Of a stretch of 64,000 bases of DNA, positions 40,360 to 64,000 are shown in pieces. Position 1 is the stretch's first letter; every line of letters begins with the position of its first letter. The stretch is from positions 7,627-71,626 of the forward strand of contig JAZUSI010000064.1 in the NCBI GenBank assembly GCA_045606665.1, given 5' to 3'. The position numbers were made by a program, and so were the translations under genes. The notes under the pieces are model-generated. The model searched no databases. It was not told the origin of the DNA and was given only the letters and a program-made list of their open reading frames with translations. The DNA is from Christensenellaceae bacterium (lineage in GTDB: Bacteria > Bacillota > Clostridia > Christensenellales > Borkfalkiaceae).

Positions 40360-40515
40360 AATATACAATCCGGTAGGTAAGGCTACCATAGGGATACGGA
40401 CTACTGCCGCAAAATAGTGGAGACACTACTAGATGGTATGAACAGACCACGTCGAAACCAAGGCGTGATTTAACGTAGTTTTCATCGCCCTACGGTGCTA
40501 AAGCCAGCATGGTTA
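40360..40515 (+). promoter_or_regulatory. M-box (ykoK) magnesium riboswitch
   Basis: The signature GGTAGGTAAGGCTACC...GATACGGACTACTGCCGCAAAATAGTGGAGACAC...GGTGCTAAAGCC matches the M-box core. Terminator-like hairpins with T-runs follow at about 40514-40537 and about 40542-40572, and mgtE lies downstream. Confidence 0.85.
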
Positions 40516-40603
40516 ATCGTTAAAAGCGATTTTTTGTATTTCCTGCCGAATTATTTTCAGCGGGATTTTTTATTGTAAAAAATTAGAAAAAGGAGAATTT
40601 ATT

Positions 40604-41965
40604 ATGACGGAAGAAATGAAAGTATTTTACGAAAGATTATCTTTTTGTTTTGAAACGCGAAAGTATGCCGACTTAAGAATTCTTCTTCTCGACATGGAAC
40701 CGGTAGATATCGCACACTACCTTGAAAACAATTTAGATGATAAAGAGCAGTTAATGTTCTTTAGAATTTTACCAAAAGAACTCGCCAGTGACGTTTTCGT
40801 TGAAATTGATAGCGATTTACAAGAAACGCTTATCAAGGCGTTTACCGATAAGGAACTTAAAGCCGTTATTGACGATATGTATCTTGACGATACGGTTGAC
40901 ATCATTGAAGAAATGCCTGCAAACGTGGTTAAAAGAATTCTTAAAAACTCCACTCCAGAGGATAGAAAACAAATAAACCAACTTTTAGAATACCCTGAAG
41001 ATTCGGCTGGATCTATTATGACCACCGAGTATATATCTTTCTCGCCATCTACCACCATTGAAAGTGCGTTTGATAAAATTAGGCGCACGGGCGTTAACAA
41101 AGAAACCATTTACACTTGTTACGTTGTGGACAGAAAGAAGCGCTTGGTCGGTGCTGTGTCCGTTAAAGATATGCTTTTGGCAGAAAAAAGCGCTATTATT
41201 GCCGACGTTATGGACTCAAATGCTGTGGTTGTTAACACGCTTGACGATAAGGAAAACGTTGCTTTAATGTTCTCTAAGTACGATAAACTTGCCCTCCCTG
41301 TTATCGACAAGGAAGGGTGCTTAGTCGGTATAATCACGGTTGATGACGCTGTGGACGTTATCCAAGAAGAAGCAACCGAAGATATCCAAAAACTCGCAGC
41401 TGTGTTGCCAAGCGAAAAACCTTATTTGAAACAATCGGTATTTTCCATTTGTAAAGCGAGATTGCCTTGGCTTATTTTACTATTAATAACTTCTACCTTT
41501 ACCAGCTTGATTTTGGCAAGTTATGAAAGTAAACTCTCGACAATCTTACTTGCTTTCGTGCCTATGCTTATGGGTACTGCCGGTAACGCAGGTGGTCAAA
41601 CTTCGGTTACAATCGTGCGCGCAATCGCCGTTGGCGACGTGGAATTTAAGGATATATTTAGAGTTATCTTAAAAGAACTTTTAGTTTCTTTGGCAATCGG
41701 CTTAATCGTGGGACTTATTTGTTTTGGCAAAATTATGCTCATAGATAGGATATATAGCGAAATTGCATTGAACGAAGCATTTGTTATCTCGCTCGTTTGT
41801 ACCATAACTTTGATAATGGCAAAGTTGGTCGGCTGTATCTTGCCACTTCTTGCTAAAAAAATTAAACTTGACCCTGCTGCCGTTGCAAGTCCACTTATGA
41901 CGACTATTGTCGATGCTTTGGCGCTTATAATTTACTGCACCATTTCAATAGCAATTTTAGTTTAA
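40604..41965 (+). CDS. mgtE: magnesium transporter MgtE
   Basis: 453 aa with an N domain, tandem CBS domains and a C-terminal TM domain carrying GNAGGQ. Confidence 0.95.
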   Translation: MTEEMKVFYERLSFCFETRKYADLRILLLDMEPVDIAHYLENNLDDKEQLMFFRILPKELASDVFVEIDSDLQETLIKAFTDKELKAVIDDMYLDDTVDIIEEMPANVVKRILKNSTPEDRKQINQLLEYPEDSAGSIMTTEYISFSPSTTIESAFDKIRRTGVNKETIYTCYVVDRKKRLVGAVSVKDMLLAEKSAIIADVMDSNAVVVNTLDDKENVALMFSKYDKLALPVIDKEGCLVGIITVDDAVDVIQEEATEDIQKLAAVLPSEKPYLKQSVFSICKARLPWLILLLITSTFTSLILASYESKLSTILLAFVPMLMGTAGNAGGQTSVTIVRAIAVGDVEFKDIFRVILKELLVSLAIGLIVGLICFGKIMLIDRIYSEIALNEAFVISLVCTITLIMAKLVGCILPLLAKKIKLDPAAVASPLMTTIVDALALIIYCTISIAILV

Positions 41966-49273: not shown

Positions 49274-50704
49274 TTAATACGCGCGAGCAAATATAACTTT
49301 GTGAGTTGCTTTTTTGCCACAGATTGCGCAAGTTTCAGGAACGCCTTCTTCATCGCACATAACTCTTGCAGTTGCTGAAGCCACTTCCTTAACTTTATCT
49401 TCACATTCACGGCAACCACACCAGCCAGCCTTAACAAAGTTTTTATTTTCAACGCCTTGTAAAATTTCTTCCAAACTATTTGCTTCAACCACTCTCTTGT
49501 CGCGATTTGCTTTAGACTTAGTAAACATATCCTTTTGAACAACGTCTAAAAGTGCTAAGATTTCGCTTGAAATATTATCAAGTGGCATAGCGTTCTTTTC
49601 AAAATTATCACGGCGAGCAATCATACATTGATTGTTTTCAATATCTCTTGGTCCGATTTCAATACGAAGTGGCACACCCTTCATTTCCCATTCGTTGAAC
49701 TTCCAACCAGGGCTCATATCACGGGTGTCAACTTCAGCTCTAATACCTGCCTTAACAAGTGCGTCTTGAAGTTCGGTTGCCTTTTCGATAACCCCACCTT
49801 TATGCGTTGCGATCGGAACGATAATAACTTGAATTGGAGCAACCTTTGGTGGCAATACCAACCCCCTTTGGTCGCCGTGCGCCATAATGATAGCGCCTAT
49901 CATACGCGTTGAAGTTCCCCAAGAAGTCGTATAGCCGTGTTTTTGCGTGCTGTCCTTATCCAAGAATTTAATATCAAACGCCTTTGCAAAGTTTTGACCT
50001 AAATAGTGGCTTGTTCCAGATTGTAAAGACTTGCCGTCAAGCATCATTGCTTCTAAGCCAAAGGTCGCAACTGCACCAGCAAACTTTTCCTTGTCGGTCT
50101 TTCTGCCTGTGAAAACAGGAAGCGCAAGAGTTTCTTCCATGAACTCTTTATAAACTTGAAGCATCTTCATAGTTTCTTCCATTGCTTCTTCTTCGGTTGC
50201 GTGAACGGTGTGACCTTCTTGCCACAAGAATTCACTCGTACGAAGGAAAGGACGCGTTGTCTTTTCCCAACGCATAACGTTGCACCATTGATTCATAATT
50301 ACAGGTAAATCTCTATATGATTGTATCCATTTAGCGTACATCGTGCCGATAACCGTTTCGCTGGTTGGACGAATAGCAAGTGGTTCTTCAAGTTTGGCGC
50401 CACCAGCGTGGGTAACGACTGCAACTTCAGGAGCAAACCCTTCAACGTGTTCTGCTTCTTTTGTAAAATAACTCATAGGAATAAGAAGTGGGAAGTAAGC
50501 GTTTTTAGAGCCTGCCTCTTTAAATCTTCTATCCATATCTTTTTGTATATTTTCCCAAATTGCATAACCATAAGGACGAATAACCATAGTTCCTTTAACC
50601 GGACCATAGTCAACGAGTTCGGTTTTTAAAACCACGTCCGTGTACCATTGTGCGAAGTCTTCATTGATGTCTGCGATTTGTTTAACGAATTGTTTTTCAC
50701 TCAT
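49274..50704 (-). CDS. proS: proline--tRNA ligase (archaeal/eukaryote-like short form)
   Basis: I trimmed the start to MSEKQFVKQI, which follows a GGAG RBS. Class II motifs and a C-terminal zinc-type Cys cluster are present. Confidence 0.92.
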   Translation of the reverse strand: MSEKQFVKQIADINEDFAQWYTDVVLKTELVDYGPVKGTMVIRPYGYAIWENIQKDMDRRFKEAGSKNAYFPLLIPMSYFTKEAEHVEGFAPEVAVVTHAGGAKLEEPLAIRPTSETVIGTMYAKWIQSYRDLPVIMNQWCNVMRWEKTTRPFLRTSEFLWQEGHTVHATEEEAMEETMKMLQVYKEFMEETLALPVFTGRKTDKEKFAGAVATFGLEAMMLDGKSLQSGTSHYLGQNFAKAFDIKFLDKDSTQKHGYTTSWGTSTRMIGAIIMAHGDQRGLVLPPKVAPIQVIIVPIATHKGGVIEKATELQDALVKAGIRAEVDTRDMSPGWKFNEWEMKGVPLRIEIGPRDIENNQCMIARRDNFEKNAMPLDNISSEILALLDVVQKDMFTKSKANRDKRVVEANSLEEILQGVENKNFVKAGWCGCRECEDKVKEVASATARVMCDEEGVPETCAICGKKATHKVIFARAY

Positions 50705-50747
50705 AATATTATCTCCGTGCATACTTTTCCATAATAATGTACTTAAT

Positions 50748-50776
50748 ATTATAGCAACAACGGGCAAATTTATCAA
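50748..50776 (-). promoter_or_regulatory. sigma-A promoter of proS
   Basis: On the minus strand: TTGATA, a 17-nt spacer, then TATAAT. Confidence 0.65.
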
Positions 50777-50805
50777 GTTTTTTCTTCAATAATACAGAAA
50801 AAGGC

Positions 50806-50834
50806 TTGAAAAACAATTGAAGTTCAGTTATAAT
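50806..50834 (+). promoter_or_regulatory. sigma-A promoter of tkt
   Basis: TTGAAA, a 17-nt spacer, then TATAAT. Confidence 0.65.
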
Positions 50835-50910
50835 ATATATTGTATCACGAAGGCTAAGCTCATTTTTTGAGCAAAAAATAAAAAGCCACTCGTATTTTGG
50901 AGGTTTTACT

Positions 50911-52881
50911 ATGCAAGACACAAAACAACTTACCGTTAACGCTATAAGAGTGCTTTCTGCAGAAGCAATCCAAAAAGCTAATTCAGGTCACCCTGGTTTG
51001 CCACTTGGTGCAGCACCTATCGGCTATGCGGCATTTACTAACATGACTTTTAACCCAAAGGATACCACTTTTGATAATAGAGATAGATTCGTTCTTTCTG
51101 CTGGTCACGGTTCTATGCTTGATTATGCACTTTATTATCTCTTTGGCTTTGGTTTAACAAAAGAAGATATTATGAATTTCCGTCAACTCGGTTCAATCAC
51201 AGCTGGCCACCCAGAATATGGCGTATGCCCAGGCGTTGAAACAAGTACCGGTCCACTCGGTCAAGGTATTGCCAACGCAGTTGGTATGGCTATCGCTGAA
51301 GATTACCTTGCTAATAAGTTCAACAGAGAAGGCTTCCCTATCGTTGACCACTACACCATCGCTCTTTGTGGTGACGGTTGTATGCAAGAAGGTATCGAAA
51401 ACGAAGCAGCATCACTCGCTGGCTCACTTAAACTCGGCAAACTCATCGTTTTATACGATGACAACGATATCACTATCGAAGGCGACACGGACATCACCTT
51501 TACTGAAAACGTTGGCAAACGTCACGAAGCTATGGGTTGGCAAGTTATAAACGTTAAGGACGCTAACGATTTAGGCGCTCTTAATCGTGCCATCAAAAAA
51601 GCAAAGGCTGAAAAGGAAAAACCATCACTTATTATCATCAAATCACAAATCGGTTATGGCTCACACCTTGTTGGCAAGGCTTCTTGCCACGGCGCTCCTC
51701 TCGGTGAAGAAGGCGTTGCAACCTTAAAGAATAACCTCGGTTGGACAAGCGCTCCATTTGAAGTTCCTGAAGAAGTATTTAAACACTGCAAGAAGTTCGG
51801 CGCTAAGGGTAGAAGAGCTCAAAAGGCTTGGAAGGCAATGTTCAAGGCTTATAGCGAACAATATCCAGAACTTGCAAAAGAATATATCGCATGGAAGAAG
51901 AAAGAACTTCCTGACCTCAAGGCTATCGAAGAATTATGGCAATTTGAAAAGGACGATGCTTCAAGAGGCTACAGCCACACCGTTCTAAATAAGCTTGCTA
52001 ATTACGTTCCAAGTTTAATCGGTGGTTCTGCTGACCTTGGTCCTGCAAACAAATCTAACATGAAGTCAAGAGGCGACTATTTGCCAACTGATAAGTCTGG
52101 TTCAAATATGCACTTCGGTATTCGTGAACACGCAATGGCTGCTATCGTTAACGGTATGTATTTACACGGTGGTCTTATCCCATACTGCGCAACTTTCGCT
52201 GTTTTCTCAGATTATATGAAAAATGCTATGCGTATGTCTGCAATTATGGAATTGCCTGTTATCTATATCTTGTCACACGACTCTATCGGTGTTGGCGAAG
52301 ACGGACCTACACACCAACCTGTTGAACACCTCGCAGGACTTCGTGCAATGCCAAACATGAAAGTTTATCGTCCAGCAGACGGCAGAGAAACAACTGCTGC
52401 TTGGATTGATGCTTTAACTGGCAAAGAACCATCTTGTATCGTTGTATCACGTCAAACTCTCCCAATGCTTGAAGGAACTGGCGAAAAAGCATTCAAGGGT
52501 GGTTATATCCTTGCTGATAGCAACAAGAAAGTTCCAGATGCTATCCTTATCGCAACTGGTAGTGAAGTTAACCTTGCTGTTAGCGCTAAGAAAGTTCTCG
52601 CCGAACAAGGCGTTGACGTTAGAGTCGTTTCTATGCCTTGCGTTGAAGTATTTGAAAAGCAAAGCGAAAAATACAAACAAAGCGTTCTTCCAAACGGCGT
52701 TCGTGCAAGAGTTGCAATCGAAGCAGGCTCTCCAATGTGCTGGTATAAATACGTTGGCTTAGACGGAAAGATTATCGGTATGGAAACGTTTGGTGAATCA
52801 GCACCTGCTGGTAAACTCTTTGCTAAATACGGCTTTACCGTTGATAAAGTTGTTGAAGCAGTTAACGAAATCGTTAAATAG
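50911..52881 (+). CDS. tkt: transketolase
   Basis: 656 aa with SGHPG, GDGCMQEG (ThDP motif) and EDGPTHQP. Confidence 0.97.
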   Translation: MQDTKQLTVNAIRVLSAEAIQKANSGHPGLPLGAAPIGYAAFTNMTFNPKDTTFDNRDRFVLSAGHGSMLDYALYYLFGFGLTKEDIMNFRQLGSITAGHPEYGVCPGVETSTGPLGQGIANAVGMAIAEDYLANKFNREGFPIVDHYTIALCGDGCMQEGIENEAASLAGSLKLGKLIVLYDDNDITIEGDTDITFTENVGKRHEAMGWQVINVKDANDLGALNRAIKKAKAEKEKPSLIIIKSQIGYGSHLVGKASCHGAPLGEEGVATLKNNLGWTSAPFEVPEEVFKHCKKFGAKGRRAQKAWKAMFKAYSEQYPELAKEYIAWKKKELPDLKAIEELWQFEKDDASRGYSHTVLNKLANYVPSLIGGSADLGPANKSNMKSRGDYLPTDKSGSNMHFGIREHAMAAIVNGMYLHGGLIPYCATFAVFSDYMKNAMRMSAIMELPVIYILSHDSIGVGEDGPTHQPVEHLAGLRAMPNMKVYRPADGRETTAAWIDALTGKEPSCIVVSRQTLPMLEGTGEKAFKGGYILADSNKKVPDAILIATGSEVNLAVSAKKVLAEQGVDVRVVSMPCVEVFEKQSEKYKQSVLPNGVRARVAIEAGSPMCWYKYVGLDGKIIGMETFGESAPAGKLFAKYGFTVDKVVEAVNEIVK

Positions 52882-52898
52882 TTTAACCTAAAGCAAAT

Positions 52899-52932
52899 CA
52901 AACGCTCGCTTATTGTTAAGCGAGCGTTTTTA
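52899..52932 (+). terminator. intrinsic terminator of tkt
   Basis: The stem AAACGCTCGCTTA/TAAGCGAGCGTTT is followed by a T-run. Confidence 0.85.
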
Positions 52933-52990
52933 TTTTGTCATTATAATTTTTCAAAGAAAAAGCAAGGCGATTTGCCTTGCTTTATTTGAT

Positions 52991-54874
52991 TTATCCGAGC
53001 GCTTGTTCGGCTTGCCTTAGGCTAATTTCGTTTAGTTGTTTTAACTGATAGAACTTGCCTTTCTTCGCCATAAGTTCACCATAAGTTCCACACTCAACCA
53101 TTTCACCCTGTTCCATAACCACAATCCTATCAGCATCGCGAATAGTTGAAAGTCTGTGAGCAACGATAAAGGTCGTTCTTCCCTTTATTGAAGAAGATAT
53201 TGCTTTTTGCACGTGGTATTCGGAAATATTGTCAAGCGCGCTGGTCGCTTCATCTAAAACGAGAATTTTTGGGTTTCTAATAAGTGCTCTTGCAATGGTT
53301 ATTCTCTGACGTTGCCCACCAGAAAGTTTTACACCGTGCTCGCCGACTTCTGTGTCAAGTCCGTTTGGCAAATCTTTTATAAACTCTGTTATATTTGCCA
53401 TTTCCACAACTCTATTCAAATCTTGTTCAGTATATCTATCAAGCCCATAGGTTATGTTTTCGCGAATAGTCCCAGGGAAAAGCACGCTCATTTGTGGAAC
53501 GACTGATATGTGATGCCTATATTCTGAAAGATTAAGGTCAGTGATTGCGTTTCCATCAATTGAAAGTTTTCCACTATTCGGCATCATAAAACCGATGATT
53601 AAATTCATAAGCGTGGATTTACCAGACCCCGATGCACCCACAACCGCAATGCACTCACCTTGTCTTACGTCAAGCGTGAAGTTGTGAACAACGTCTTGTT
53701 CAGACTTTGGATAACGATAGCACACGTTTTCAAACCTGACGTCACCATTAATTGATGGAATATTTTTCTTGCCTATACTAATTTCAACGTCAGACGCGTT
53801 CATTACTTCAGAAATAGAGTCTAGCGATTCTGCCCCCGATGCTATTGTCGGAGCAATATTGGTTAACGCCATAATAGAACTGCTTATTTGTGAAAACATC
53901 GTTTGATAAAGAATTATATCGCCCACACCGATTATTTTATTAAGCGCCAAAAACACACAAAAAATAACGCAAACACTTTTCAACAACTCGTTTACCACCC
54001 AAACGGCAGAGCCAAATACTGAAAGCCTTTTGTCAATGCGTAGCCCCGCGCCTGTAAGGTCTCGAATTTTCTTATTGAAGGAACTTATTTCAGAGCTTTC
54101 CAAGCCATGAGATTTAGTGACCGGAATCATTTCAAGCATAGTGTTCATCTTTGCGCCCATTGCTTCGTTCTTCAAGCGATATTCTCTATACCCTGCACGC
54201 AATTTTTTGTTAAATGCCTTGCTTATAAGCACGTTCATCGGTATAACGATTACAAAGAAGATGGAAACTATCCACCCTTTTTCGTTGCTGAAAATGGTAA
54301 TTCCCGTCGAAACGATTATCCCTATTACGCACGGAATTAAACTGAACATAATGGTGTGCATAAGCGTGTCAATCGATTCAACGTCCTTTAAAAATTTAGA
54401 CTGAATTCTACCCGATTGCATATCGTTATGATAGGTAATAGATAAATGCTGAAGTTTTCTAACAACCGAAGATTTAATCGCAGCACTAGTTTGCCTATTC
54501 ATTTTACTGACCACACGCCACCTTAACATAGTGCCGGGGATATTTAACATTATGCACGCAAATATTACAACGGCGTTTATCACAATGGTTTGAATAACTT
54601 GAGCCGTCACGCCCGCCCCACTACTTATTACCAGAGTTATAACGTTTATAATGTTTGCCGTCAGCAATGGTGTAATCCAAACAGGTAAGTTTTGAAAAAT
54701 CAATAAAAACGAAGATGTAATGATAGGTTTTCTATTAATTCTTAAAACTTTTTTAAAAAAACCTTTTTTCCGTTTAGATTTTTTAGCCACGTTTTGCTCG
54801 TTAAAAAGGTGGTCGTAATCGGGGATTATAAAGTCGCTTCGCTTAATGGTCTCCTTTCCTTCAGTGTTTTTCAT
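52991..54874 (-). CDS. ABC exporter, fused permease/ATPase (MsbA/multidrug type)
   Basis: 627 aa with an N-terminal 6-TM domain, Walker A GASGSGKST, signature LSGGQRQR and LVLDEATS. Confidence 0.9.
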   Translation of the reverse strand: MKNTEGKETIKRSDFIIPDYDHLFNEQNVAKKSKRKKGFFKKVLRINRKPIITSSFLLIFQNLPVWITPLLTANIINVITLVISSGAGVTAQVIQTIVINAVVIFACIMLNIPGTMLRWRVVSKMNRQTSAAIKSSVVRKLQHLSITYHNDMQSGRIQSKFLKDVESIDTLMHTIMFSLIPCVIGIIVSTGITIFSNEKGWIVSIFFVIVIPMNVLISKAFNKKLRAGYREYRLKNEAMGAKMNTMLEMIPVTKSHGLESSEISSFNKKIRDLTGAGLRIDKRLSVFGSAVWVVNELLKSVCVIFCVFLALNKIIGVGDIILYQTMFSQISSSIMALTNIAPTIASGAESLDSISEVMNASDVEISIGKKNIPSINGDVRFENVCYRYPKSEQDVVHNFTLDVRQGECIAVVGASGSGKSTLMNLIIGFMMPNSGKLSIDGNAITDLNLSEYRHHISVVPQMSVLFPGTIRENITYGLDRYTEQDLNRVVEMANITEFIKDLPNGLDTEVGEHGVKLSGGQRQRITIARALIRNPKILVLDEATSALDNISEYHVQKAISSSIKGRTTFIVAHRLSTIRDADRIVVMEQGEMVECGTYGELMAKKGKFYQLKQLNEISLRQAEQALG

Positions 54875-54989
54875 TTTTCTATCCGCCTATAATATTAAAG
54901 ACCTTAACTATAAGTTAAAGTCTTTTGGTTGCGTTAAATATAGCATTTAAAAAATGCCTTGTCAAGCCTTTTTTTAAATTTTCTTTTAA

Positions 54990-55448
54990 TTATTTTTTGT
55001 TCTCCAAAAACTCGTAAAGTGCGTTCACACCTTGCTCCACGTCAAATAACGTTGCATTAAAATCTCCTGTCCAATAAGGGTCGGCAACGTCACGTGGAAA
55101 ATCAGTAAAATCCAAAAGTTTACTGCACTTATTGTCTTTATCCACACCAAAAATACGCATCATATTAACAAAGTTTCTTTGATCCATACAAATGAAATAA
55201 TCATACTTATCGTAATCGGCTTTCTTTAAGGTAACTGCGTACTTCTCACTGCAATCTATCCCTCTTTGGTTTAAGATTTTTCTCGTTCCATAATGCACAG
55301 GGTTTCCAAGTTCTTCACTGCTCGTTCCAGATGATGCAATGATATATTCATTTTGCTTGTTATTCTTTTTAACAAGGTCTTTCATTAAAAATTCAGCCAT
55401 AGTCGAACGGCAAATATTACCGTGACAAACAAACATTATTCTATGCAT
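54990..55448 (-). CDS. low-molecular-weight protein-tyrosine phosphatase
   Basis: The P-loop is CHGNICRS (C-x5-R-S) and a DP motif lies near the C-terminus. Confidence 0.9.
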   Translation of the reverse strand: MHRIMFVCHGNICRSTMAEFLMKDLVKKNNKQNEYIIASSGTSSEELGNPVHYGTRKILNQRGIDCSEKYAVTLKKADYDKYDYFICMDQRNFVNMMRIFGVDKDNKCSKLLDFTDFPRDVADPYWTGDFNATLFDVEQGVNALYEFLENKK

Positions 55449-55460
55449 TTTTATTTCCTT

Positions 55461-55799
55461 TTAAGAATCATAATCGTATGGTATTCTGTTTTTCCTTTCG
55501 CCTTTCAAATTCAATATATATCCATCTTCCACCTTGCACCACCAATCTGGATTCTTCTTAGGCAAACCCTCCAAAATCATATCGTCGGTTGCTTTTCCAT
55601 CTTCAACAACCTCCATATCTCGTATGTCAACAATAGCATGTTTATACCACTCGTTTTCATCATGATTGTCGAATATAACCTCAAAAGCATTTTCTCTAAT
55701 TTCGGCGCTCCAAATTGTGCCTATTTCGCCTTTGTGAATGTTCTCCTCTAAATACTCTTTTTTATTACAAAGTATTTTTACTTTATCATATATTTTCAT
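55461..55799 (-). CDS. hypothetical protein with a DUF4926-like N-terminal half (candidate immunity/antitoxin partner)
   Basis: 112 aa. Its start shares a base with the stop of the upstream gene. The pattern IHKGEIGTIWSAEI...FEVIFDN resembles small SH3-like DUF4926 proteins. Confidence 0.5.
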   Translation of the reverse strand: MKIYDKVKILCNKKEYLEENIHKGEIGTIWSAEIRENAFEVIFDNHDENEWYKHAIVDIRDMEVVEDGKATDDMILEGLPKKNPDWWCKVEDGYILNLKGERKNRIPYDYDS

Positions 55800-56431
55800 T
55801 AAGCCTTTCCTCCAACAAGCGTATTCACTTTTAATTTCCCGTTAGGAAAAATCATACAAGAAGATTTTAAATTAAAGATTTCGCCTTGATGGTCTTTTAT
55901 CCCTTTTAGTTTTATATATAATGTAATTTTGAATCCGAATTTATTATGTATTTTTCTCTTATACTTTCCTAAAACATAGGCTTCTCTCATCGCAAACTGC
56001 AGTTCATTTAATAATAAACCTATATCTTCATCTTTGTAACCCCAACTGTGAATCCAATGAATCTTGTCTTTCAACAACCACCATATTTTGCCCTGTTCTA
56101 TAATAAAACTTATTTCATCATAATTAGGTTTGCTAACTGCGATTTTTTTGCAATGACAATGTGGATGATAAAGCCCACGATTTAGTAACGGTATTTCTTG
56201 CAAACTATATTTCCCATAATCAAACTCAACAGGTTTTTTGTCTTCTTCATTCTTAAAACAACAATTGTTTACGCTTACACACAAAGCACAATGTGTTTTG
56301 GTTATTTCTTCATCAACACCCGTTTCATAAGGAAAATCTTCTATAGTAAATCCCGATTTGTTGTCGTTTATTTTTATCCAATCGCTAAACTTCGCTGTCA
56401 ACCTTTCTTGGATATTATCAAATATACCCAT
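55799..56431 (-). CDS. hypothetical protein carrying a phage MuF/SPP1-gp7-type Cys...HPxCxC motif and an unassigned C-terminal domain
   Basis: 210 aa. The motif reads THCALCVSVNNCCF...LYHPHCHCKKI. No prophage context is visible. Confidence 0.5.
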   Translation of the reverse strand: MGIFDNIQERLTAKFSDWIKINDNKSGFTIEDFPYETGVDEEITKTHCALCVSVNNCCFKNEEDKKPVEFDYGKYSLQEIPLLNRGLYHPHCHCKKIAVSKPNYDEISFIIEQGKIWWLLKDKIHWIHSWGYKDEDIGLLLNELQFAMREAYVLGKYKRKIHNKFGFKITLYIKLKGIKDHQGEIFNLKSSCMIFPNGKLKVNTLVGGKA

Positions 56432-56557
56432 ATTTTTCTCCTTTATTTTATCATATATTTTAATTTTTTCTATAATTTATCATCTAAATTTTGCAAAATC
56501 AAGGAGATATTACATAGATACAGTAAAATTTTCTCAACAACTTTATCGAAAGCCTTT

Positions 56558-56986
56558 TTATTTTTTATTTTTTCTTGCCTTTTCAATTTCCTTAACCTTT
56601 TTCCAAAGTTTAAGGCTTTCTTCAGGGGTAGAAGGTCTATCTTCTTCCCCAAAAACGTGTGGGTGACGGCGAATAAGTTTATCGGTTAAACCTTGAATAA
56701 CGTTGTTAAAATTAAACGCGCCCCTTTCTTTGGCAACTTGTGCGTTCATCAAAACCTGCAATAAAAGGTCACCTAGTTCTTCACATAAATTTTCATCATC
56801 TTTCTTGTCTATGGCATCAATTACTTCTTGACTTTCGTCAATTAAACATCTTTTTAATGTTTCGTGCGTTTGCGCTCTATCCCACTCGCAACCATTTTCG
56901 CTCCTTAAAATTTCCACAACTTCTAAAAGTTCATCTATATTATGTTTTTGTCCTTCAATAAAAATCTCTCCGTTATGTTCTTTCAT
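56558..56986 (-). CDS. mazG: MazG-family nucleoside triphosphate pyrophosphohydrolase
   Basis: I trimmed the start to MKEHNGEIF, which follows an AGGAG RBS. The sequence contains CEWDRAQTHETLKRCLIDESQEVIDAI and EELGDLLLQV. Confidence 0.85.
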   Translation of the reverse strand: MKEHNGEIFIEGQKHNIDELLEVVEILRSENGCEWDRAQTHETLKRCLIDESQEVIDAIDKKDDENLCEELGDLLLQVLMNAQVAKERGAFNFNNVIQGLTDKLIRRHPHVFGEEDRPSTPEESLKLWKKVKEIEKARKNKK

Positions 56987-57086
56987 TTCGTGCTCCTTTT
57001 TCAAATATATTTTAACATATATGCTTGCTTTTTGCAAGATAAAAGGGCAAACGAAAAATCGTTCGCCCCTATTTAATTTTTTATAT

Positions 57087-58427
57087 TTATTCAGCAACCG
57101 CAATATTTTCTTGTACCTTTTGTTGTTCTATTGCATCTAAAATCTTCTTTTTATCACGATGCGCCGAGTTAATGCAAAGGTTCATCACCACTATTGCAAA
57201 AAGCATAAAGAAGGCAAACACGATGAACGCAACGCTATACCCACCGAAAAGGTCAAAACACATATTTGCAAAAGGTGCGCCGAGTGCAAGCCCTGCAGTA
57301 TTTACCGCCGAGAACACGCCTACAACCTTAATGAAACTTTTATCCCCAAACATCTCACTTGCAAAGAGTGGAAGCATAACCGTCTCTAACGGCAATGCAA
57401 TTGTTCCCGCAACCCCTCTAACGTACGCCAAAATTCTACCCATAACACTGTTGTCGAGTATTGCCAAAGCGCCCAAAGATAAAAACGCACAAACAAAGCA
57501 AAGGTTCATTGTAATTTTAATCCCTGTTCTATCATACATAAAGCCCGTAAAAATTTTCGTACCCATAAGACATAGGCTTGTGACAGTTCCTAAATTTGCA
57601 ACAAATTGCTTGTCAAACCCCAAATCGTACATATGCGGGGTGGCAATTCCACCTAAACCTTGTAGGGACATTCCCGCAAGGAAAATGCAAATCATTGCCA
57701 AGTAATAATAAGGCTTTTTTGCAGTTTCTTTATATTCCATACCAATCCAGCCCGTGCCACGAGCTTTCTTTTTCTTGCCGACCACAAGTTCTTTTTTATC
57801 CACACCTTTTGGTCGTTCCTTAAACAATAATATAACTAGTAAAAGCACAACTGCCAAAATAAGCGCCACAAGTTTATAGGAATTTCTATAACCAAATGGT
57901 TCGTATCCCAATGGGTGATTGCTTGGCTTAAATATTATTGGCGAAATAATTTGAACAGCAACCGCGCCACCAAGTCCGTTTGCAGAAAGAATTAACCCTG
58001 TTATAGTGCCTTTGTTTTTCTTGCACCATACCCCAACAACAGCACTCATCATAGCCGTGCTTGTCCAAGATAAGCCTATGCCAAGTAAAACCGCACCGAT
58101 ATAAAAACCCCACAAGGTCTCTGAGATTGCGCTTACGTATGCAAAACCTATTAAACAGACAAAGCCTGCGATTATGAGTTTTTTAATGCCAAACTTTGCA
58201 ATTAAAAAACCCAAGCAGAGATTTAACATCGTGGTTATCCCATAACGAATAGTATCGGTTAAGGAATATAGACTTCTCTTTATATCTAGCGCCTCGGTTA
58301 TTGCCGTTAGATAATAGGTTTTTCCACTTGAACAAAAACCCAAACTTGTGCAAACGACTAAAAAACTTACGGCAATTATAACCCAAGCATAATCAAAATT
58401 TTTCTTTTTTCCCTTTAACTCTTCCAT
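57087..58427 (-). CDS. MFS transporter
   Basis: 446 aa with about 12 hydrophobic spans and a central basic loop. Confidence 0.8.
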   Translation of the reverse strand: MEELKGKKKNFDYAWVIIAVSFLVVCTSLGFCSSGKTYYLTAITEALDIKRSLYSLTDTIRYGITTMLNLCLGFLIAKFGIKKLIIAGFVCLIGFAYVSAISETLWGFYIGAVLLGIGLSWTSTAMMSAVVGVWCKKNKGTITGLILSANGLGGAVAVQIISPIIFKPSNHPLGYEPFGYRNSYKLVALILAVVLLLVILLFKERPKGVDKKELVVGKKKKARGTGWIGMEYKETAKKPYYYLAMICIFLAGMSLQGLGGIATPHMYDLGFDKQFVANLGTVTSLCLMGTKIFTGFMYDRTGIKITMNLCFVCAFLSLGALAILDNSVMGRILAYVRGVAGTIALPLETVMLPLFASEMFGDKSFIKVVGVFSAVNTAGLALGAPFANMCFDLFGGYSVAFIVFAFFMLFAIVVMNLCINSAHRDKKKILDAIEQQKVQENIAVAE

Positions 58428-58596
58428 TTTGCTTTTCCTCTTTTTTTGAAATTATACTGCTATAAACACAAAAAGTAAAATAAACAAAATAGACTTATCC
58501 ACACAACATGGAAAAAACCGAACAAATTTGTTGAAAAGTTTAGTTGCAAATGCTATAATATTATTGAAATATAGAAAAAACAAGGAAATATTTGGT

Positions 58597-59352
58597 ATGT
58601 TTAACTTTATTGAAGACGCTAATATCACTTCTTCTTTTCATTTACAAACTAAACCATATGGAAAAATCCAAAATAGAAAAACACACGGCTTTATTTTTAG
58701 AATAAGTGGAGAAACTGAATATGATTTTGGCGATAAAAAACTTTATCTAAAACCTAATAACGTCATTTTCTTGCCACAAGGCGCATCTTACGAGTACAGA
58801 CCTTTGCAAAACGATGCTTTTTATACTTCTATAAATTTTACTGCCACCATTGATAACCCCACCCCAGCAATCTTTTCATTAGACGATTTTTATGAAAAGA
58901 ATTTTATATATGAAAGTTTTGCTGACCTTTGGAAATTTGGCGCAACTCACGATAGATATAAATGCCTTTCGGTCTTTTATAATTTTCTTTCTTATCTTTC
59001 AAGAATAGAACACTTAAATCATTTGGATAAAAATAAACATTATATGATTGAGCCTGCGATAGAATATCTAAGGTCACATTTGTTTGATTGCCACCTAAAA
59101 ATAGACAATCTCTCAAAACTATGTTGCATTTCGGACACTTATTTTAGAAAAATTTTTCTTTCAAGATTTGGCGTAAGCCCAAAAGAATACGTGCTTAATC
59201 AACGCATATCCCACGCAAAAGCCATCATAGAAAGTGGCGAGGTCGATAGCATTAGCGAAGCCTCTAAAATGGTGGGCTATAAAGATGCTCTATATTTTAG
59301 TAAAGCTTTCAAAAAAATCTATGGTTTTTCACCATCAACTGTCAATCAGTAA
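58597..59352 (+). CDS. AraC-family transcriptional regulator (cupin plus HTH)
   Basis: The C-terminal HTH region reads ISEASKMVGYKDALYFSKAFKKIYGFSP. The gene is divergent from the MFS gene. Confidence 0.85.
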   Translation: MFNFIEDANITSSFHLQTKPYGKIQNRKTHGFIFRISGETEYDFGDKKLYLKPNNVIFLPQGASYEYRPLQNDAFYTSINFTATIDNPTPAIFSLDDFYEKNFIYESFADLWKFGATHDRYKCLSVFYNFLSYLSRIEHLNHLDKNKHYMIEPAIEYLRSHLFDCHLKIDNLSKLCCISDTYFRKIFLSRFGVSPKEYVLNQRISHAKAIIESGEVDSISEASKMVGYKDALYFSKAFKKIYGFSPSTVNQ

Positions 59353-59354
59353 TT

Positions 59355-59387
59355 AAAAAAGCATAACTAAAAAAGTTATGCTTTTTC
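59355..59387 (+). terminator. intrinsic terminator
   Basis: The stem AAAAGCATAACT/AGTTATGCTTTT is followed by a T-run. Confidence 0.8.
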
Positions 59388-59439: not shown

Positions 59440-60660
59440 TTAGAATTTATAATCTTTATAAGGGATTTTTGCAATTTCTCTCTTGCCATTATGAATAGTG
59501 TCAAACGTTATGTATTTGCCGTCCCTCGTAAATCTCATATGTAGGTCGCATCTAATATCGCTGTCGTCATTTTCTAAAGGTTCAGAATAAACGTCCATAA
59601 GCTTTCTACATTCGCCAGTTGTTGGATTCATGGCAAAAATTGGGCGATAGTCAGGAAATTCTCTTGGATATCCGTCACCCATAATATATTTTCCGTCTGG
59701 AGCAACCGAACAGTGAATGTCTTTCTTTTGAAGAGAAACGTTTTCTGGTCCTAAATCAACGCCAACTGGTTGATGTTCTTTAATCGTTCCATCCCAGAAG
59801 AAAGAAATTACACCAGCATTGCTATATGAACCAGGTTTTCCAATAGGGTCTGCGTGTGCAATGATTTCATCGTTATTTACCCACCAATAGTGTGAGCAAT
59901 ATTTGTCTTGAAGCAATGACTTAATATTGCCATTCAAATCGCCAACTGCAAGCGTCGTCGTCCAAGGCCAAATACCTTTTCTTGGGAAACGGCGAAGAAG
60001 AATGTTGTATCTGTCTGAATTAGGACTAAAGGTAATGTGGTTAACCAAAATTTTATCTTCAGGTTCATAGCCACTAATCTTTAACATTTCTTCATAATTA
60101 ACCAAAAGTTTTGACTTCCCTGTTTGCATATCAATTAGGAAAATACCATCTTCTTTTGGGCAACCTACGTCATAGAACTTGTCTTTAAAACCAGGGTAGC
60201 CATAACCAGCACGATAGTCAAAAATTCTACTAAAGTTAACAGCCAAACCATATTTACCATCAGGAGAAATGGTTGCAGCTGCCCTATCGGTATATCTAAC
60301 TTCACCGGTCTTTAAGTTATGTATAGCAGTAGCGTAATCGTCTTTTGTCCTAACGTTATAATAAACGATATCATCGTTATCTCTTGAATATTGTAAAAGA
60401 GCGCCTTGTTGAAAGTTCCAAGCCGTTGTCTTTGCAAATGGCGTAAACTTTCTGTTATTTAAAATACCAAGTTCAACTTCATCTTCTGCAACGTTGTCCC
60501 TGTCCATAAAGCTAACTCTGTGGCAAAGATGATTTTGTCCCTTGCTGTCAGTTGCTCTTAGATCATAATAAGCAAAAAAGTAATGATAATCATCATCAGG
60601 TGTTATTATTTCTACTTCATCTGCAGTATAATACTTAGGATTTACATTTATTAGTGCCAT
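59440..60660 (-). CDS. beta-propeller protein (TolB/oligogalacturonate-lyase-like)
   Basis: 406 aa with repeated SPDGKY/TRDGKY blade motifs. The family assignment is tentative. Confidence 0.45.
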   Translation of the reverse strand: MALINVNPKYYTADEVEIITPDDDYHYFFAYYDLRATDSKGQNHLCHRVSFMDRDNVAEDEVELGILNNRKFTPFAKTTAWNFQQGALLQYSRDNDDIVYYNVRTKDDYATAIHNLKTGEVRYTDRAAATISPDGKYGLAVNFSRIFDYRAGYGYPGFKDKFYDVGCPKEDGIFLIDMQTGKSKLLVNYEEMLKISGYEPEDKILVNHITFSPNSDRYNILLRRFPRKGIWPWTTTLAVGDLNGNIKSLLQDKYCSHYWWVNNDEIIAHADPIGKPGSYSNAGVISFFWDGTIKEHQPVGVDLGPENVSLQKKDIHCSVAPDGKYIMGDGYPREFPDYRPIFAMNPTTGECRKLMDVYSEPLENDDSDIRCDLHMRFTRDGKYITFDTIHNGKREIAKIPYKDYKF

Positions 60661-60833
60661 CGTTTTGTTCTCCTATAAAACTTTAAGATTTTTAATTTGA
60701 TAATAATCAGTATTAACCTATTATTTCTTCAATTATATCATGCCAAATTCAGGTTGTCAATAATAAAATCATTTATTAAATACTCATTGTCTCTTTTTTC
60801 TGTTTATCTTAAATCTCACAAATAAAAAGTAAT

Positions 60834-60912
60834 ATCAAACTAACTGCGACTTCTTCCCGTGACCGTCCTAATCGTTCACGATTAGCGGTCTGGGATATGG
60901 TTGTTGCTTACA
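60834..60912 (+). ncRNA. 5S-rRNA-like mini element, copy 1
   Basis: The sequence is ATCAAACTAACTGCG...GACCG-hairpin-CGGTCTGGGATATGGTTGTTGCT. Its 3' part nearly matches the 3' end of the true 5S gene. A second copy lies at 63021-63093. Confidence 0.45.
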
Positions 60913-60914
60913 AA

Positions 60915-60950
60915 AGAAAAGCACCCATATTAAAGGATGCGTTCTTTTTG
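60915..60950 (-). terminator. terminator of the 81-aa repeat-protein gene
   Basis: On the minus strand: the stem GCATCC/GGGTGC followed by a U-rich run. Confidence 0.55.
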
Positions 60951-60987
60951 TCTTACACTCATATAATAGTTGTTATCATTTCTTAAT

Positions 60988-61233
60988 TTAATCCTTTATA
61001 TATCCTACAATTGACCAACTTGAATTATATACTGTATCTCCTTTTATATACCCCTCAATCGACCAGTTGGAATTATATATTGTTCCTCCTTGTAGGTACC
61101 CAATAATCGACCAGCTTGAATTATATATCGTTCCGTTTCTTAAATATCCTATAATTGACCAATTTGAACTATATATTGTATCACCTTGTATATAACCAAA
61201 ATTAGACCAATTAGAACCAAATAATGTTGCCAT
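60988..61233 (-). CDS. small repeat protein: five tandem ~16-aa GxTIYxSNWSIIGY units (beta-flower-like)
   Basis: The sequence is MATLFGSNWSNFGYIQGDTIYSSNWSIIGYLRNGTIYNSSWSIIGYLQGGTIYNSNWSIEGYIKGDTVYNSSWSIVGYIKD, with a GGAG RBS. Confidence 0.7.
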   Translation of the reverse strand: MATLFGSNWSNFGYIQGDTIYSSNWSIIGYLRNGTIYNSSWSIIGYLQGGTIYNSNWSIEGYIKGDTVYNSSWSIVGYIKD

Positions 61234-61355
61234 TTTATTTCTCCTTTTTTATTTTGTACTTTTTTTATTACATTTAACCGTAATATCAATGCAATCTGTT
61301 CTACCATCCTTGCATTTAAACTTTAACTTGATATTTTTCCCTTCAAAATATTGCT

Positions 61356-61811
61356 TTAAGCTATTGCAAAATTTTTTGCCAGTTTTTGTAAGAAAATGGT
61401 TTGCAAAAAAACTGTCCATTTCTCCTTTATAAAACTTAAAAGCATAAAAATGTATTCCGTGTTTTTTGAAGAAAAAACATATAAATCATATTTTTTTGAA
61501 AAAGCATTAAATGCCATTAAATCATCTGTCCATCTACCTGAAGCCTCTACGTAAGCCCAAGTTAATTCCTCATTCATTATAATCGGTAACGTTGCAGAGC
61601 GCAAGTTTAAAAAATTAATATAACCGCTTACAACAAATTTATCTCTTTTGATTTTGCCTAACTTTATTTTTTTAATAGCAGAAGTTGATTTTTCTTCTAT
61701 ATCATTTCTAATTTTTTCAATTGTTTTTTCAAATTCTATATCTAAGAGTTCGTCTATTCTCTTCATCCACTTTTCTCTATCTGCTCTTGATACTTTTCTT
61801 ATGTAAGACAC
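61356..61811 (-). CDS. hypothetical protein, paralog of 62176-62688; the C-terminus appears to be frameshifted
   Basis: The N-terminal pattern and the KKYD..F motif are shared with the paralog. The expected C-terminal segment is readable in another frame down to 61249. Confidence 0.5.
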   Translation of the reverse strand: MSYIRKVSRADREKWMKRIDELLDIEFEKTIEKIRNDIEEKSTSAIKKIKLGKIKRDKFVVSGYINFLNLRSATLPIIMNEELTWAYVEASGRWTDDLMAFNAFSKKYDLYVFSSKNTEYIFMLLSFIKEKWTVFLQTIFLQKLAKNFAIA

Positions 61812-61858
61812 ATTTCTTCCCCTTTATTTTTTAATCAACTTCACACATAAAATATTTA

Positions 61859-62137
61859 TCACGGCCAAATAGTTTCCCAATTTGTCCCACCTAAGTGCCT
61901 TAATTCGCAAACTTTATATGAACCTCTTTTTAAATACCATTCATTATATTGAGTTTCTTTTTCTATCGAATATTCGCTATAACTATAATTAGTAAATTTA
62001 TATTCTGTTTTCGGTTCTCCCCATCCAAAAGAAATTAAACTTCCATCCCAATCAAGCACCGTACAACCAAACCTATCTAAAATTTTACCATCTTTGAATT
62101 TAAGTCCTTCTTTTGCCAACTTTTCCAAATCAAGCAT
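61859..62137 (-). CDS. hypothetical protein (92 aa)
   Basis: An ORF with a GGAG RBS. I recognise no domain. Confidence 0.55.
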   Translation of the reverse strand: MLDLEKLAKEGLKFKDGKILDRFGCTVLDWDGSLISFGWGEPKTEYKFTNYSYSEYSIEKETQYNEWYLKRGSYKVCELRHLGGTNWETIWP

Positions 62138-62175
62138 TTTATTTCTCCTTTAATTGATGGTTTTTCTCGCGAAGT

Positions 62176-62688
62176 TTATCTTTTAATAGAACACGAAAAA
62201 ACTATCTTAAACTGCGTCACCAAGCCATTCCAAGAACATTTAATCTTCATTCCTGAACCTGCAAGCTTTTCATTTAGTTTGGAAACAAACAATTTCCCTG
62301 TGTTTGTTTTAGACCACGGCAACCAACCAGTAAAAAACTTAAGAGCAAATGTACAATATTTATCATAGTGCCAACAAAAAACGTCATATTTTTTTGGATA
62401 CTTTTCAAGCGTTTTTAAACTTGCTCTTCTACCACCTAAAGTATCTGACCATAATTGCACAATTTCATTTTTGTCAATATCAAATACGATATCTTCACTG
62501 TCACTAGCAAACGGATTAAATCCCACAATAAGAATCCCTTTTATTTTTTTCTTTCCAGCACGAGCATTTTCATTAAGTATCTGAATAAGTTCATTATATG
62601 TGGCTTGTACACACAAATTAAACTGTTCTTCAAGTATAGCATCAATTCTTGCTCTTGCTTCTTTTTTTGTTAATTGTATTCTTGACAT
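62176..62688 (-). CDS. hypothetical protein (170 aa)
   Basis: I trimmed the start to MSRIQLTKKEARARIDAILEE, which follows an AGGAG RBS. The gene is divergent from an XRE gene. Confidence 0.6.
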   Translation of the reverse strand: MSRIQLTKKEARARIDAILEEQFNLCVQATYNELIQILNENARAGKKKIKGILIVGFNPFASDSEDIVFDIDKNEIVQLWSDTLGGRRASLKTLEKYPKKYDVFCWHYDKYCTFALKFFTGWLPWSKTNTGKLFVSKLNEKLAGSGMKIKCSWNGLVTQFKIVFSCSIKR

Positions 62689-62798
62689 ACTTGTTATTCT
62701 CCTTTGTTTTTGATGTGCTTTTTCTTTAATTTGTTTAATTATATCACATTTTGAGATATATGTCAATATCTCAACGCGAGATATCATATAATGTTTAT

Positions 62799-62987
62799 AT
62801 GAAATTAAAAGAATTAAGAGAAGAGAACAACGTCTCACAAAAAGAAATAGCTGATTTTTTAAATATTAAACAAAATACCTATTCGCAATATGAAACAGGG
62901 AAGCGACAATTACCTGTTGATGTTTTGATTAAACTTTCAAAGTTTTATAAAATATCAACCGATTATATTTTAGGGCTAGAAGATTAA
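62799..62987 (+). CDS. XRE-family HTH regulator
   Basis: I trimmed the start to MKLKELREENNVSQKEIADFLNIKQNTYSQYETG. A TATAAT hexamer lies 6 nt upstream of the ATG. Confidence 0.8.
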   Translation: MKLKELREENNVSQKEIADFLNIKQNTYSQYETGKRQLPVDVLIKLSKFYKISTDYILGLED

Positions 62988-63020
62988 AACCACTAACTTT
63001 TTGTTAGTGGTTTTATTTTT
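62986..63020 (+). terminator. intrinsic terminator of the XRE gene
   Basis: The stem AAACCACTAAC/GTTAGTGGTTT is followed by a T-run. Confidence 0.8.
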
Positions 63021-63093
63021 ATCAAACTAACTGCGGCTTTTTCACGAACACAATCATTTATGATTGTCGGTTCGGGATATGGTTGTTACTGCA
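63021..63093 (+). ncRNA. 5S-rRNA-like mini element, copy 2
   Basis: The sequence is ATCAAACTAACTGCGG...GAAC-hairpin-GTTCGGGATATGGTTGTTACTGCA. It is convergent with the real 5S gene across a shared terminator. Confidence 0.45.
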
Positions 63094-63095
63094 AC

Positions 63096-63128
63096 AAAAA
63101 AAGAACCACTTTTGTGGTTCTCTTTTTT
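63096..63128. terminator. bidirectional terminator shared by the 5S rRNA gene and mini element 2
   Basis: The stem AGAACCAC/GTGGTTCT has an A-run and a T-run on either side. Confidence 0.8.
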
Positions 63129-63135
63129 GTTTGGA

Positions 63136-63252
63136 TGCAGCAACAACCTATTTTCCCGGACCGTCGCCAGTCAAGTATTTTCGGCGCTAGTGAGCTTAAC
63201 TTCTGTGTTCGGTATGAGAACAGGTGGGACCTCACCGCTATCGTCACCGCAA
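63136..63252 (-). rRNA. rrf: 5S ribosomal RNA
   Basis: The minus strand reads TGCGGTGACGATAGCGGTGAGGTCCCACCTGTTCTCATACCGAACACAGAAGTTAAGCTC...GGTTGTTGCTGCA. It has the canonical CCGAAC and AGTTAAGC blocks, and helix I closes. Confidence 0.93.
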
Positions 63253-63464
63253 TGGTATATCTCGGAATTCCTTCCGTTAATATCTCTTCTCAGGTGGATA
63301 TATTCTATCACACCCTCTATCTCTCCGTCAATTTTTTTTCACGGTAGATTCACAACTACATAGATTTTTTTCTCTTCCATTAAGTTCTTTTTTAGCTCGG
63401 CTAAAATATCTTAATATAGTTAGTTTCGTATACTTTAATTCGCTCTTCTTTCTCAATCTCTTGA

Positions 63465-64000
<536 letters not shown>

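Follow-up and report, generated by a model that had tools for sequence, protein, structure and literature searches.

The region described here is the right end of a 64,000-nucleotide (nt) window of DNA from a Christensenellaceae bacterium (assembly GCA_045606665.1; contig JAZUSI010000064.1, positions 7,627 to 71,626 of the forward strand), where the 3′ end of a ribosomal RNA operon (rrn) is encoded on the minus strand, the operon reading from right to left. Two copies of a short hairpin-forming element, here termed E, lie just past the 5S rRNA gene in direct orientation, at the places given for them in an initial annotation made from the sequence, and bracket an island (60913 to 63020) of five genes: four small genes on the minus strand and a divergent gene for a regulator of the XRE family. 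Toward the 5S gene the order is an AraC gene, a gene for a protein of 406 amino acids (aa), E copy 1 (type 1), a terminator, the island, E copy 2 (type 2), a second terminator, and the 5S gene (Table 1). E is derived from the 3′ end of the 5S gene, is clustered at the rrn end, and marks the limits of a segment that has been replaced between close relatives.

Table 1. Features of the window around the two copies of E and the end of the rRNA operon
Feature	Position	Strand	Basis or remark
Backbone gene, 406-aa protein, no known family	59440..60762	-	Perfect promoter at 60760..60732
E copy 1 (distal)	60834..60912	+	5′ block 60834-60848; hairpin 60846-60907
Terminator hairpin GCATCC...GGGTGC and T-run	60921..60940	-	Ends island operon; detected on minus strand only
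Island operon, four small genes	60988..62688	-	List of open reading frames (ORFs) and family searches
81-aa 5-fold beta-flower repeat protein	60988-61233	-	PF21785, E-value 6e-19
151-aa protein	61356-61811	-	No known family
92-aa protein	61859-62137	-	No known family
170-aa protein	62176-62688	-	No known family
Divergent promoter region and 22-nt palindrome	62738..62787	both	Promoter scan and inverted-repeat search
XRE-family helix-turn-helix regulator, 62 aa	62799..62987	+	HTH_3, E-value 1e-17
XRE gene terminator (CCACTAAC...GTTAGTGG)	62985..63015	+	Abuts 5′ block of E copy 2
E copy 2 (5S-proximal)	63021..63093	+	Same 5′ and 3′ blocks; hairpin 63033-63089
Bidirectional terminator, perfect	63102..63121	both	Common to rrn operon (5S) and E copy 2
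True 5S rRNA gene	63135..63251	-	RF00001, 92.7 bits
23S rRNA gene, 3′ part	63463..64000	-	Rfam search

The two copies share a 15-nt block at the 5′ end (ATCAAACTAACTGCG) and a 17-nt block at the 3′ end (GGGATATGGTTGTTRC), and each block occurs in the 64 kb exactly twice, as the initial annotation had it, the former at 60834 and 63021 and the latter at 60892 and 63074 (for the 3′ block, 0.22 matches per window are expected by chance, and two or more were found in 3 of 100 shuffles). Both copies are complete and differ over the central ~45 nt. On the plus strand each folds into one long irregular hairpin (-29.9 kcal/mol, z -5.8, for copy 1; -18.6 kcal/mol, z -2.7, for copy 2), and the reverse complements fold worse. 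The hairpin of copy 1 consists of an outer stem (GCGAC/GUUGC), inner stems, and a central stem-loop (CCUAAUCG-UUCA-CGAUUAG); the central stem-loop of copy 2 is ACAAUCAU-UUAU-GAUUGU. These centers had been described as completely different, but they can be aligned: four of the seven stem pairs are identical, and the other three show double compensatory changes (C-G to A-U, U-A to C-G, and G-C to A-U). The outer stem begins with the last three bases of the 5′ block (AAACTAACTGCG), the rest of which lies outside the hairpin; the block is invariant in four copies. A 9-mer of this block (AAACTAACT) recurs in the spacer between 23S and 5S (63418-63426, minus strand, the strand of the pre-rRNA); since chance alone would give about 1.5 such matches per window, the spacer match is probably a coincidence and was discarded as not significant.

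An alignment of six copies (A2; the two of the window and four from relatives) bears out the earlier claim of a structured element with pairing-preserving changes. Standard pairs fill 91.8% of its paired cells, versus 22-52% when the partner strand is slid by one to three columns, and 4 of 24 pairs change on both sides, three of these four in the central stem. With about three independent sequence types represented, the covariation appears suggestive, not conclusive. The two strands are not equivalent: the outer stem contains an invariant G-U pair and the adjoining stems have recurring G-U pairs, and because of these conserved pairs only the E-sense strand forms the outer stems (six of six copies); in the folding comparison, too, the E-sense strand was better than the antisense strand in each of the six copies. 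With R1, a covariance model built for E, copy 1 scores 97.5 bits and copy 2 95.1 bits.

In every copy the 3′ arm of the E-sense strand aligns to positions 88-116 of 5S rRNA (CGGTCYGGG-ATAT-GGTTGTTRCTGCA), the source sequence being the 3′ end of the 5S gene (63135-63163); the derivation from 5S put forward in the initial annotation is upheld by this similarity, which is significant throughout. Shuffled sequences scored as high in 0 of 2000 and 1 of 1000 trials for copy 1 and in 0 of 2000 and 0 of 1000 for copy 2; taken over all copies, the result was 0 of 1000 for five, 1 of 1000 for copy 1, and 5 of 1000 for a short copy in the relative L057 (see below). The resemblance lies at 60886-60908 in copy 1, and in copy 2 the arm (CGGTTCGGGATATGGTTGTTACTGCA) repeats the 5S 3′ end in inverted orientation. 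The outer stem, kept in all copies, corresponds to GUGAC/GUUGC of 5S helix I (positions 5-9 and 108-112), and a CCC..GAC / GUC.GGG stem corresponds to helix IV. A proposed match of a 5′ TGCGG to helix I exists in copy 2 only and not in copy 1, the register common to all copies being GCGAC/GUUGC. The 5′ arm is an imperfect complement of the 3′ arm (in copy 1 its reverse complement matches GACGGTC-CGGGAA of 5S), so that the 3′ segment of 5S is present three times on the plus strand in alternating orientation, as the 5′ arm of E, the 3′ arm of E, and the real 5S gene. The junctions between these three segments are the central stem-loop of E and the rrn terminator, on which copy 2 and the 5S gene converge, as had been predicted.

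E derives from 5S without being a 5S. It has no helix II/III domain (loop B, loop C), the 5′ strand of helix I running almost directly into the helix V/IV strand within a hairpin of ~62 nt; a stem-loop is inserted in loop D of the 5S layout; and the strands of 5S loop E are, by our reading of the Rfam 5S alignment, shortened, which makes mimicry of 5S toward 5S-binding proteins doubtful. When the suggested comparison with the Rfam 5S model (RF00001) was run by cmscan over 60700-63300, neither copy matched on either strand at an E-value of 10 or less, and the sole 5S match was the true gene. Among the other Rfam families searched over the locus at a permissive threshold none fits E, the weak matches being terminators or chance. 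The reverse complement of E was also considered as a remnant of a 5S core in the orientation of the gene (CCATATCCCGAAC against loop C CATACCGAAC), but this match is inconsistent across copies and not significant. When 63015-63251 of the minus strand is folded as one RNA, with the rrn terminator read through, the 5S 3′ end pairs with the reverse complement of E; this predicted pairing lengthens the terminator stem and disrupts helix I, with the consequence that 5S would misfold in read-through transcripts.

A scan of a genome collection (one genome per species) for a strict pattern of both E blocks yielded one true relative, a Christensenellaceae metagenome-assembled genome (MAG; GCA_045633745.1, here L002) whose matched segments are 85-89% identical to the window; another match with both blocks (L001) was a chance occurrence inside an archaeal coding region. 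Two more relatives, a Logan contig (L046, 91-94% identical to positions 50001-59359 of the window) and an ENA contig (L057), were reached by protein look-ups. All three belong to the Christensenellaceae lineage of the window; the island is absent from each of them, yet each has two copies of E, and in this sense the copies do bracket DNA without counterpart in relatives, as claimed.

The order toward the 5S gene differs in each. In L046, AraC is followed by a gene for a 316-aa protein (unrelated to the 406-aa protein of the window), a copy of E with a type 2 center (e1), a terminator, a creatininase gene, a partial E, and the contig end, past which the 5S gene lies. L057 carries creatininase, a 5′-truncated E abutting a degenerate 5S 3′ fragment, a spacer, a short E without the central stem-loop, a terminator, and the 5S gene, and there is no intact long copy at the locus. 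L002 carries creatininase, a 5S fragment, a spacer, a short E, a terminator, a second 5S fragment, a spacer, a long E of type 1, a terminator, and the 5S gene. The segment between the distal and the proximal E has therefore been replaced between close relatives, being the island in one and creatininase in another. Decayed forms of E in the relatives include both 5′-truncated copies and short copies without the center, and the degenerate fragments between E copies (L002 255-365 and 445-560; L057 225-330) are 3′ halves of 5S in the same orientation as the real gene; for the L002 fragment GGATGCAGCAACAAGCATTC, none of 1000 shuffles scored as high. In L057 the 3′ arm of E abuts the 5S fragment with no terminator between them, creating a palindrome (ATGGTTGTTACTGCAACAACCAT). 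The comparison of these arrays shows a repeated module (5S 3′ end, terminator, inverted copy of the 5S 3′ end), which has undergone duplication, truncation, and recombination in the DNA beyond the rrn operon. The creatininase genes beside the E arrays of L046 (35-917) and L002 (520-1401) differ at 1 of 245 residues, with DNA that is 86.9% identical; this indicates that the gene, which is absent from this locus in the window genome, is probably under strong purifying selection.

Individual copies are mosaic with respect to their flanks. The long, 5S-proximal copy of L002 is exactly identical to copy 1 of the window over 71 nt (60837-60907), and its downstream flank is that of copy 2 (the terminator, then the 5S gene); recombination at E that brought in, or exchanged, the island together with copy 2 would be expected to give such a combination. 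The e1 copy of L046 joins the center of window copy 2 to the downstream terminator module of copy 1, and in the flank alignment the module formed by copy 1 and its terminator resembles that of e1. Between the window and L002 the 5S gene differs at 3 of 117 positions, and the matched neighboring segments at 11-15%.

These comparisons bear directly on one of the two interpretations in the initial annotation, namely that the copies are the attL and attR ends of a single mobile island, with the target duplicated on insertion. The direct repeats around DNA that relatives lack, and the XRE regulator at one end, are what such an island might show, but the copies, being complete and different at the center, contain no duplicated identical core. 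The suggested search for a single remaining copy in island-free relatives found two instead, either in tandem or around creatininase, and no single unoccupied site in L002, L046, or L057. Searches of the island against Pfam, PHROG, and PADLOC revealed no recombinase, integrase, or excisionase, and BLAST of the whole locus against phage and plasmid records gave matches over short stretches only (50-90 nt, AT-rich). The attL/attR reading is largely refuted by the relatives, and we regard it as very improbable; of the broader notion that E is a target of recombination, the junction pattern in L002 is the part that stands. IS200/IS605-type ends and their non-autonomous derivatives, PATEs, were also considered, on account of the hairpins in direct orientation and their strand asymmetry, and were rejected: no transposase and no matching left and right end hairpins are present.

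E is confined to a narrow zone. In 271,395 bases of the window and other Christensenellales DNA searched with R1, every match lies no more than ~2.5 kb from a 5S gene or from a contig end that adjoins such a gene, and no further copy was detected in the remainder; a scatter through the genome of the REP/BIME kind is not seen, the copies occurring at the rrn end only. In the window, L002, and L057 (except for its truncated copy), the several copies of E are accompanied by terminators and lie downstream of the normal 5S gene that closes an rrn operon. The pattern used for the genome collection was strict, so diverged copies may exist elsewhere. A metagenome scan with the 5′ block found 22 loci, none of them with the 3′ block and all of them chance or coding matches, and viral contigs scanned for the 5′ block gave no match. 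Creatininase homologs elsewhere (82-91% identity) are in other contexts with no E nearby. Assemblies tend to break past rrn operons, and contigs end at all three related loci.

We consider it about an even chance (a probability near 0.5) that E is a lineage-restricted repeat made from the 3′ end of the 5S gene, the debris of inverted and tandem duplication, which now serves as homology and boundary for the exchange of segments. An inverted copy of the last ~28 nt of the 5S gene would have arisen across the hairpin of the rrn terminator, and a second fold-back would have supplied the 5′ arm complementary to this inverted copy; a fold-back origin, similar to that of tandem inversions, is suggested because of the alternating orientation and the perfectly palindromic junction in L057. 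The resulting module (5S 3′ end, terminator, E) may then have been multiplied and reshuffled in the DNA adjoining the operon, where degenerate fragments of 5S would have been left behind. The E copies and the rrn operon would offer short patches of homology at which ordinary recombination, within or between strains, could replace the DNA between them: an XRE-controlled operon of four small genes here, creatininase or almost nothing in relatives. E itself would need no function.

Several observations weigh against this proposal. Four compensatory pair changes with few disruptions, combined with the strand asymmetry due to G-U pairs, look like selection on a single-stranded structure, although palindrome-correcting template switching and an excess of transitions could be the source of both. 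The invariant 5′ block is left unexplained by a duplication model. The exact identity over 71 nt, between genomes that are 85-89% identical in matched neighboring segments, needs either constraint or recent exchange. The evidence, finally, comes from four loci of one lineage. The compensatory changes and G-U asymmetry, the invariant block, and the 71-nt identity keep alive two alternatives, a small RNA and an attC-like site. That E is a functional single-stranded structure of one of these kinds, either a non-integron site of attC type in a cassette array anchored on 5S or an expressed mini-5S RNA with helices I and IV retained and a role in the biology of the ribosome or of 5S, we consider unlikely, and the features just listed are compatible with both versions.

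As a gene for a small structured RNA, E would specify a plus-strand "mini-5S" of ~75-120 nt in which a single-stranded 5′ tail (AAACUAACU) precedes a long irregular hairpin and a terminator; the transcript is predicted to begin at the AAACUAAC block and would act through the tail or by binding a factor that recognizes the helix I / helix IV end of 5S. A hairpin with a T-run follows every complete copy at ~10-45 nt, and a TAnnAT-like hexamer precedes ACTGCG by 7-10 nt in most copies; together with the preserved pairing (4 of 24 pairs compensated), an outer stem confined to the E-sense strand, the invariant 5′ block in four copies, and the 71 nt shared between species, these features suit a transcribed element. 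Promoter searches upstream of the copies in the window and relatives, however, found no conserved promoter, only the -10-like hexamers with no -35 box, and upstream DNA is not conserved: copy 2 starts straight after the XRE terminator, and the DNA that precedes the positionally equivalent copies of the window and L046 is unrelated. A possible plus-strand promoter upstream of copy 1 (TTGTCA-17-TAAATA) was rejected: the sequence is the perfect promoter of the 406-aa gene, which lies on the minus strand, in reverse complement. Copy 1 and the short copy of L002 are followed by terminators that pair better on the opposite strand, truncated and center-less copies exist, and L057 has no intact long copy. 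Neither 5S nor any other Rfam family matches, and the shortened loop E strands argue against mimicry of 5S toward its proteins. The initial annotation's expressed 5S-like RNA or decoy is not supported as stated, given the lack of a 5S match and of a conserved promoter, the shortened loop E, and distal-copy terminators that favor the opposite strand; the more general small RNA is a possible but rather unlikely account.

In the other alternative, E would be the structured target of a site-specific recombinase encoded elsewhere, comparable to attC, and the genes between copies would be cassettes inserted beside the 5S gene. Such a site could account for conserved 5′ and 3′ blocks around a variable or missing center, for a strand-asymmetric hairpin, for the direct orientation in which each minus-strand unit ends in a terminator and E, and for cargo that varies by strain (island or creatininase); comparison of the proximal E of L002 with the window copies also fits a crossover in or just after GGTTGTTRC. 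Integron attC sites have an R″ box (RYYYAAC) and an R′ box (GTTRRRY) at their two ends that pair with each other. In E these consensus boxes (RYYYAAC / GTTRRRY) are not present: read from the sequence, AACTAAC has one mismatch to R″ and GTTGTTG, GTTGCTT, and GTTACTG have two to three mismatches to R′, the paired outer stem being GCGAC/GTTGC. No recombinase was found in the island or among the annotated neighboring genes on the non-rrn side in L046, L057, and L025, a related MAG described below. Tandem copies with only a 5S fragment and a terminator between them point to duplication of the flank and not to capture of cassettes, and the supposed cassettes are equipped with promoters of their own and, in the case of the window, comprise five genes. 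This alternative is distinctly unlikely.

For the favored origin by duplication, the closest precedent is a set of 5S pseudogene remnants found downstream of the normal 5S gene at rrn ends in Peptococcaceae and Pseudoalteromonas, where multiple copies occur along with terminators (Stepanov and Fox 2021, RNA 27:133; PMC7812874). Those remnants keep a 5S-like core with large insertions and lack one or both terminal parts, and the authors see them as probably untranscribed and as potential donors for recombination (PMC7812874). E resembles them in being 5S-derived, non-canonical, downstream of the normal 5S gene, present in several copies with terminators, and found in Clostridia; all its copies have significant similarity to the resident 5S gene, and L002 and L057 carry 5S fragments in the 5S orientation. 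It differs in keeping the 5S termini and helix IV/V sequence without the helix II/III core; in being inverted relative to 5S (the orientation of the remnants themselves is our assumption); and in forming a self-complementary hairpin with compensatory changes that brackets protein-coding genes.

Other systems are less close. The likeness to 5S rRNA (RF00001) covers the 3′ arm (positions 88-116), the outer stem (helix I), and the CCC..GAC / GUC.GGG stem (helix IV), whereas helix II/III is missing, loop E is shortened, loop D has an inserted stem-loop, and the covariance model is not matched. Conserved ends, a variable terminal structure, and strand-specific folding are features of integron attC sites, which also occur in clusters without an integrase, known as CALINs. 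With these E shares a likeness of operation only, including direct orientation at the 3′ end of gene units, a comparison made from general features; unlike them, it lacks the consensus boxes, has no integron integrase in view, and adjoins multigene units that carry promoters, with fragments of 5S separating the copies. In Salmonella, quasi-palindromes are known to seed tandem inversion duplications. There, as in E, a segment is present three times with its orientation alternating, and short hairpins form the junctions (in E these would be the rrn terminator and the central stem-loop), but the segment in E is only ~25-35 nt long, old, diverged, and multiplied, and the mechanism proposed for it is inferred.

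Sequence immediately beyond an rRNA operon is generally regarded as featureless; here it is a structured and fast-changing zone. If recombination at E is real, it would provide a simple route for accessory genes to reach the flanks of rRNA operons in gut Clostridia, and would be a caution to annotators who name such elements small RNAs or att sites from sequence pattern alone. If E is instead transcribed or is a site for a recombinase, it would be a rare case of an rRNA fragment recruited to a new function.

Within the island, a perfect promoter (TTGACA-17-TATAAT, 12 of 12 matching; 62766..62738) drives the minus-strand operon, and a weaker plus-strand promoter serves the XRE gene. A 22-nt palindrome (ATTATATCACATTTTGAGATAT / ATATCTCAACGCGAGATATCAT) overlaps both and is likely to be the operator of the XRE repressor. 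The operon proteins gave no informative match to PHROG (three weak matches to families of unknown function) and none to PADLOC. In the protein collection the 151-, 92-, and 62-aa proteins each form a cluster of one member, and neither the 81-aa nor the 170-aa sequence is present there in exact form. Four tandem 48-nt DNA repeats at 60996-61228 belong to coding sequence and do not form a non-coding array: they encode the 16-aa repeats (GxxIYNSxWSIxGY-like) of the PF21785 beta-flower protein. The region of the 92-aa gene (61812-62154) is 99.4% identical in two short ENA gut-metagenome contigs (L044 and L045); in L044 the gene lies behind another XRE gene, whose 68-aa product shares a 90% cluster with the L002 XRE, and a gene for a 58-aa protein, which suggests that modules of XRE and small genes are themselves reshuffled.

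The terminators of the island have sequence in common with other parts of the locus. In the one that ends the operon, the first arm (GCATCC) equals the final 6 nt of the 5S region. The hairpin of the XRE terminator (CCACTAAC...GTTAGTGG) shares CTAAC with the 5′ block of E, and recurs with small changes in L057 (~1225-1260, minus strand) between the creatininase gene and a gene for a 287-aa protein.

Beyond the distal copy, homology of the 406-aa gene to its ortholog in a relative ends at 60762, ~70 nt before E. The gene and its promoter (59440-60762) are found in a wholly different neighborhood in a related MAG (L025 9905-11226), far from any rrn operon and with no E beside them, and the gene may therefore itself be a relocated unit. 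The 406-aa protein has hundreds of homologs at ~50% identity in Clostridia metagenomes and contains no Pfam domain. A scan of the whole window found no gene for tRNA or tmRNA. An M-box (magnesium) riboswitch at 40362-40520 on the plus strand (90.7 bits) lies upstream of an ORF for a 453-aa protein (40604-41965), presumed to be a magnesium transporter.

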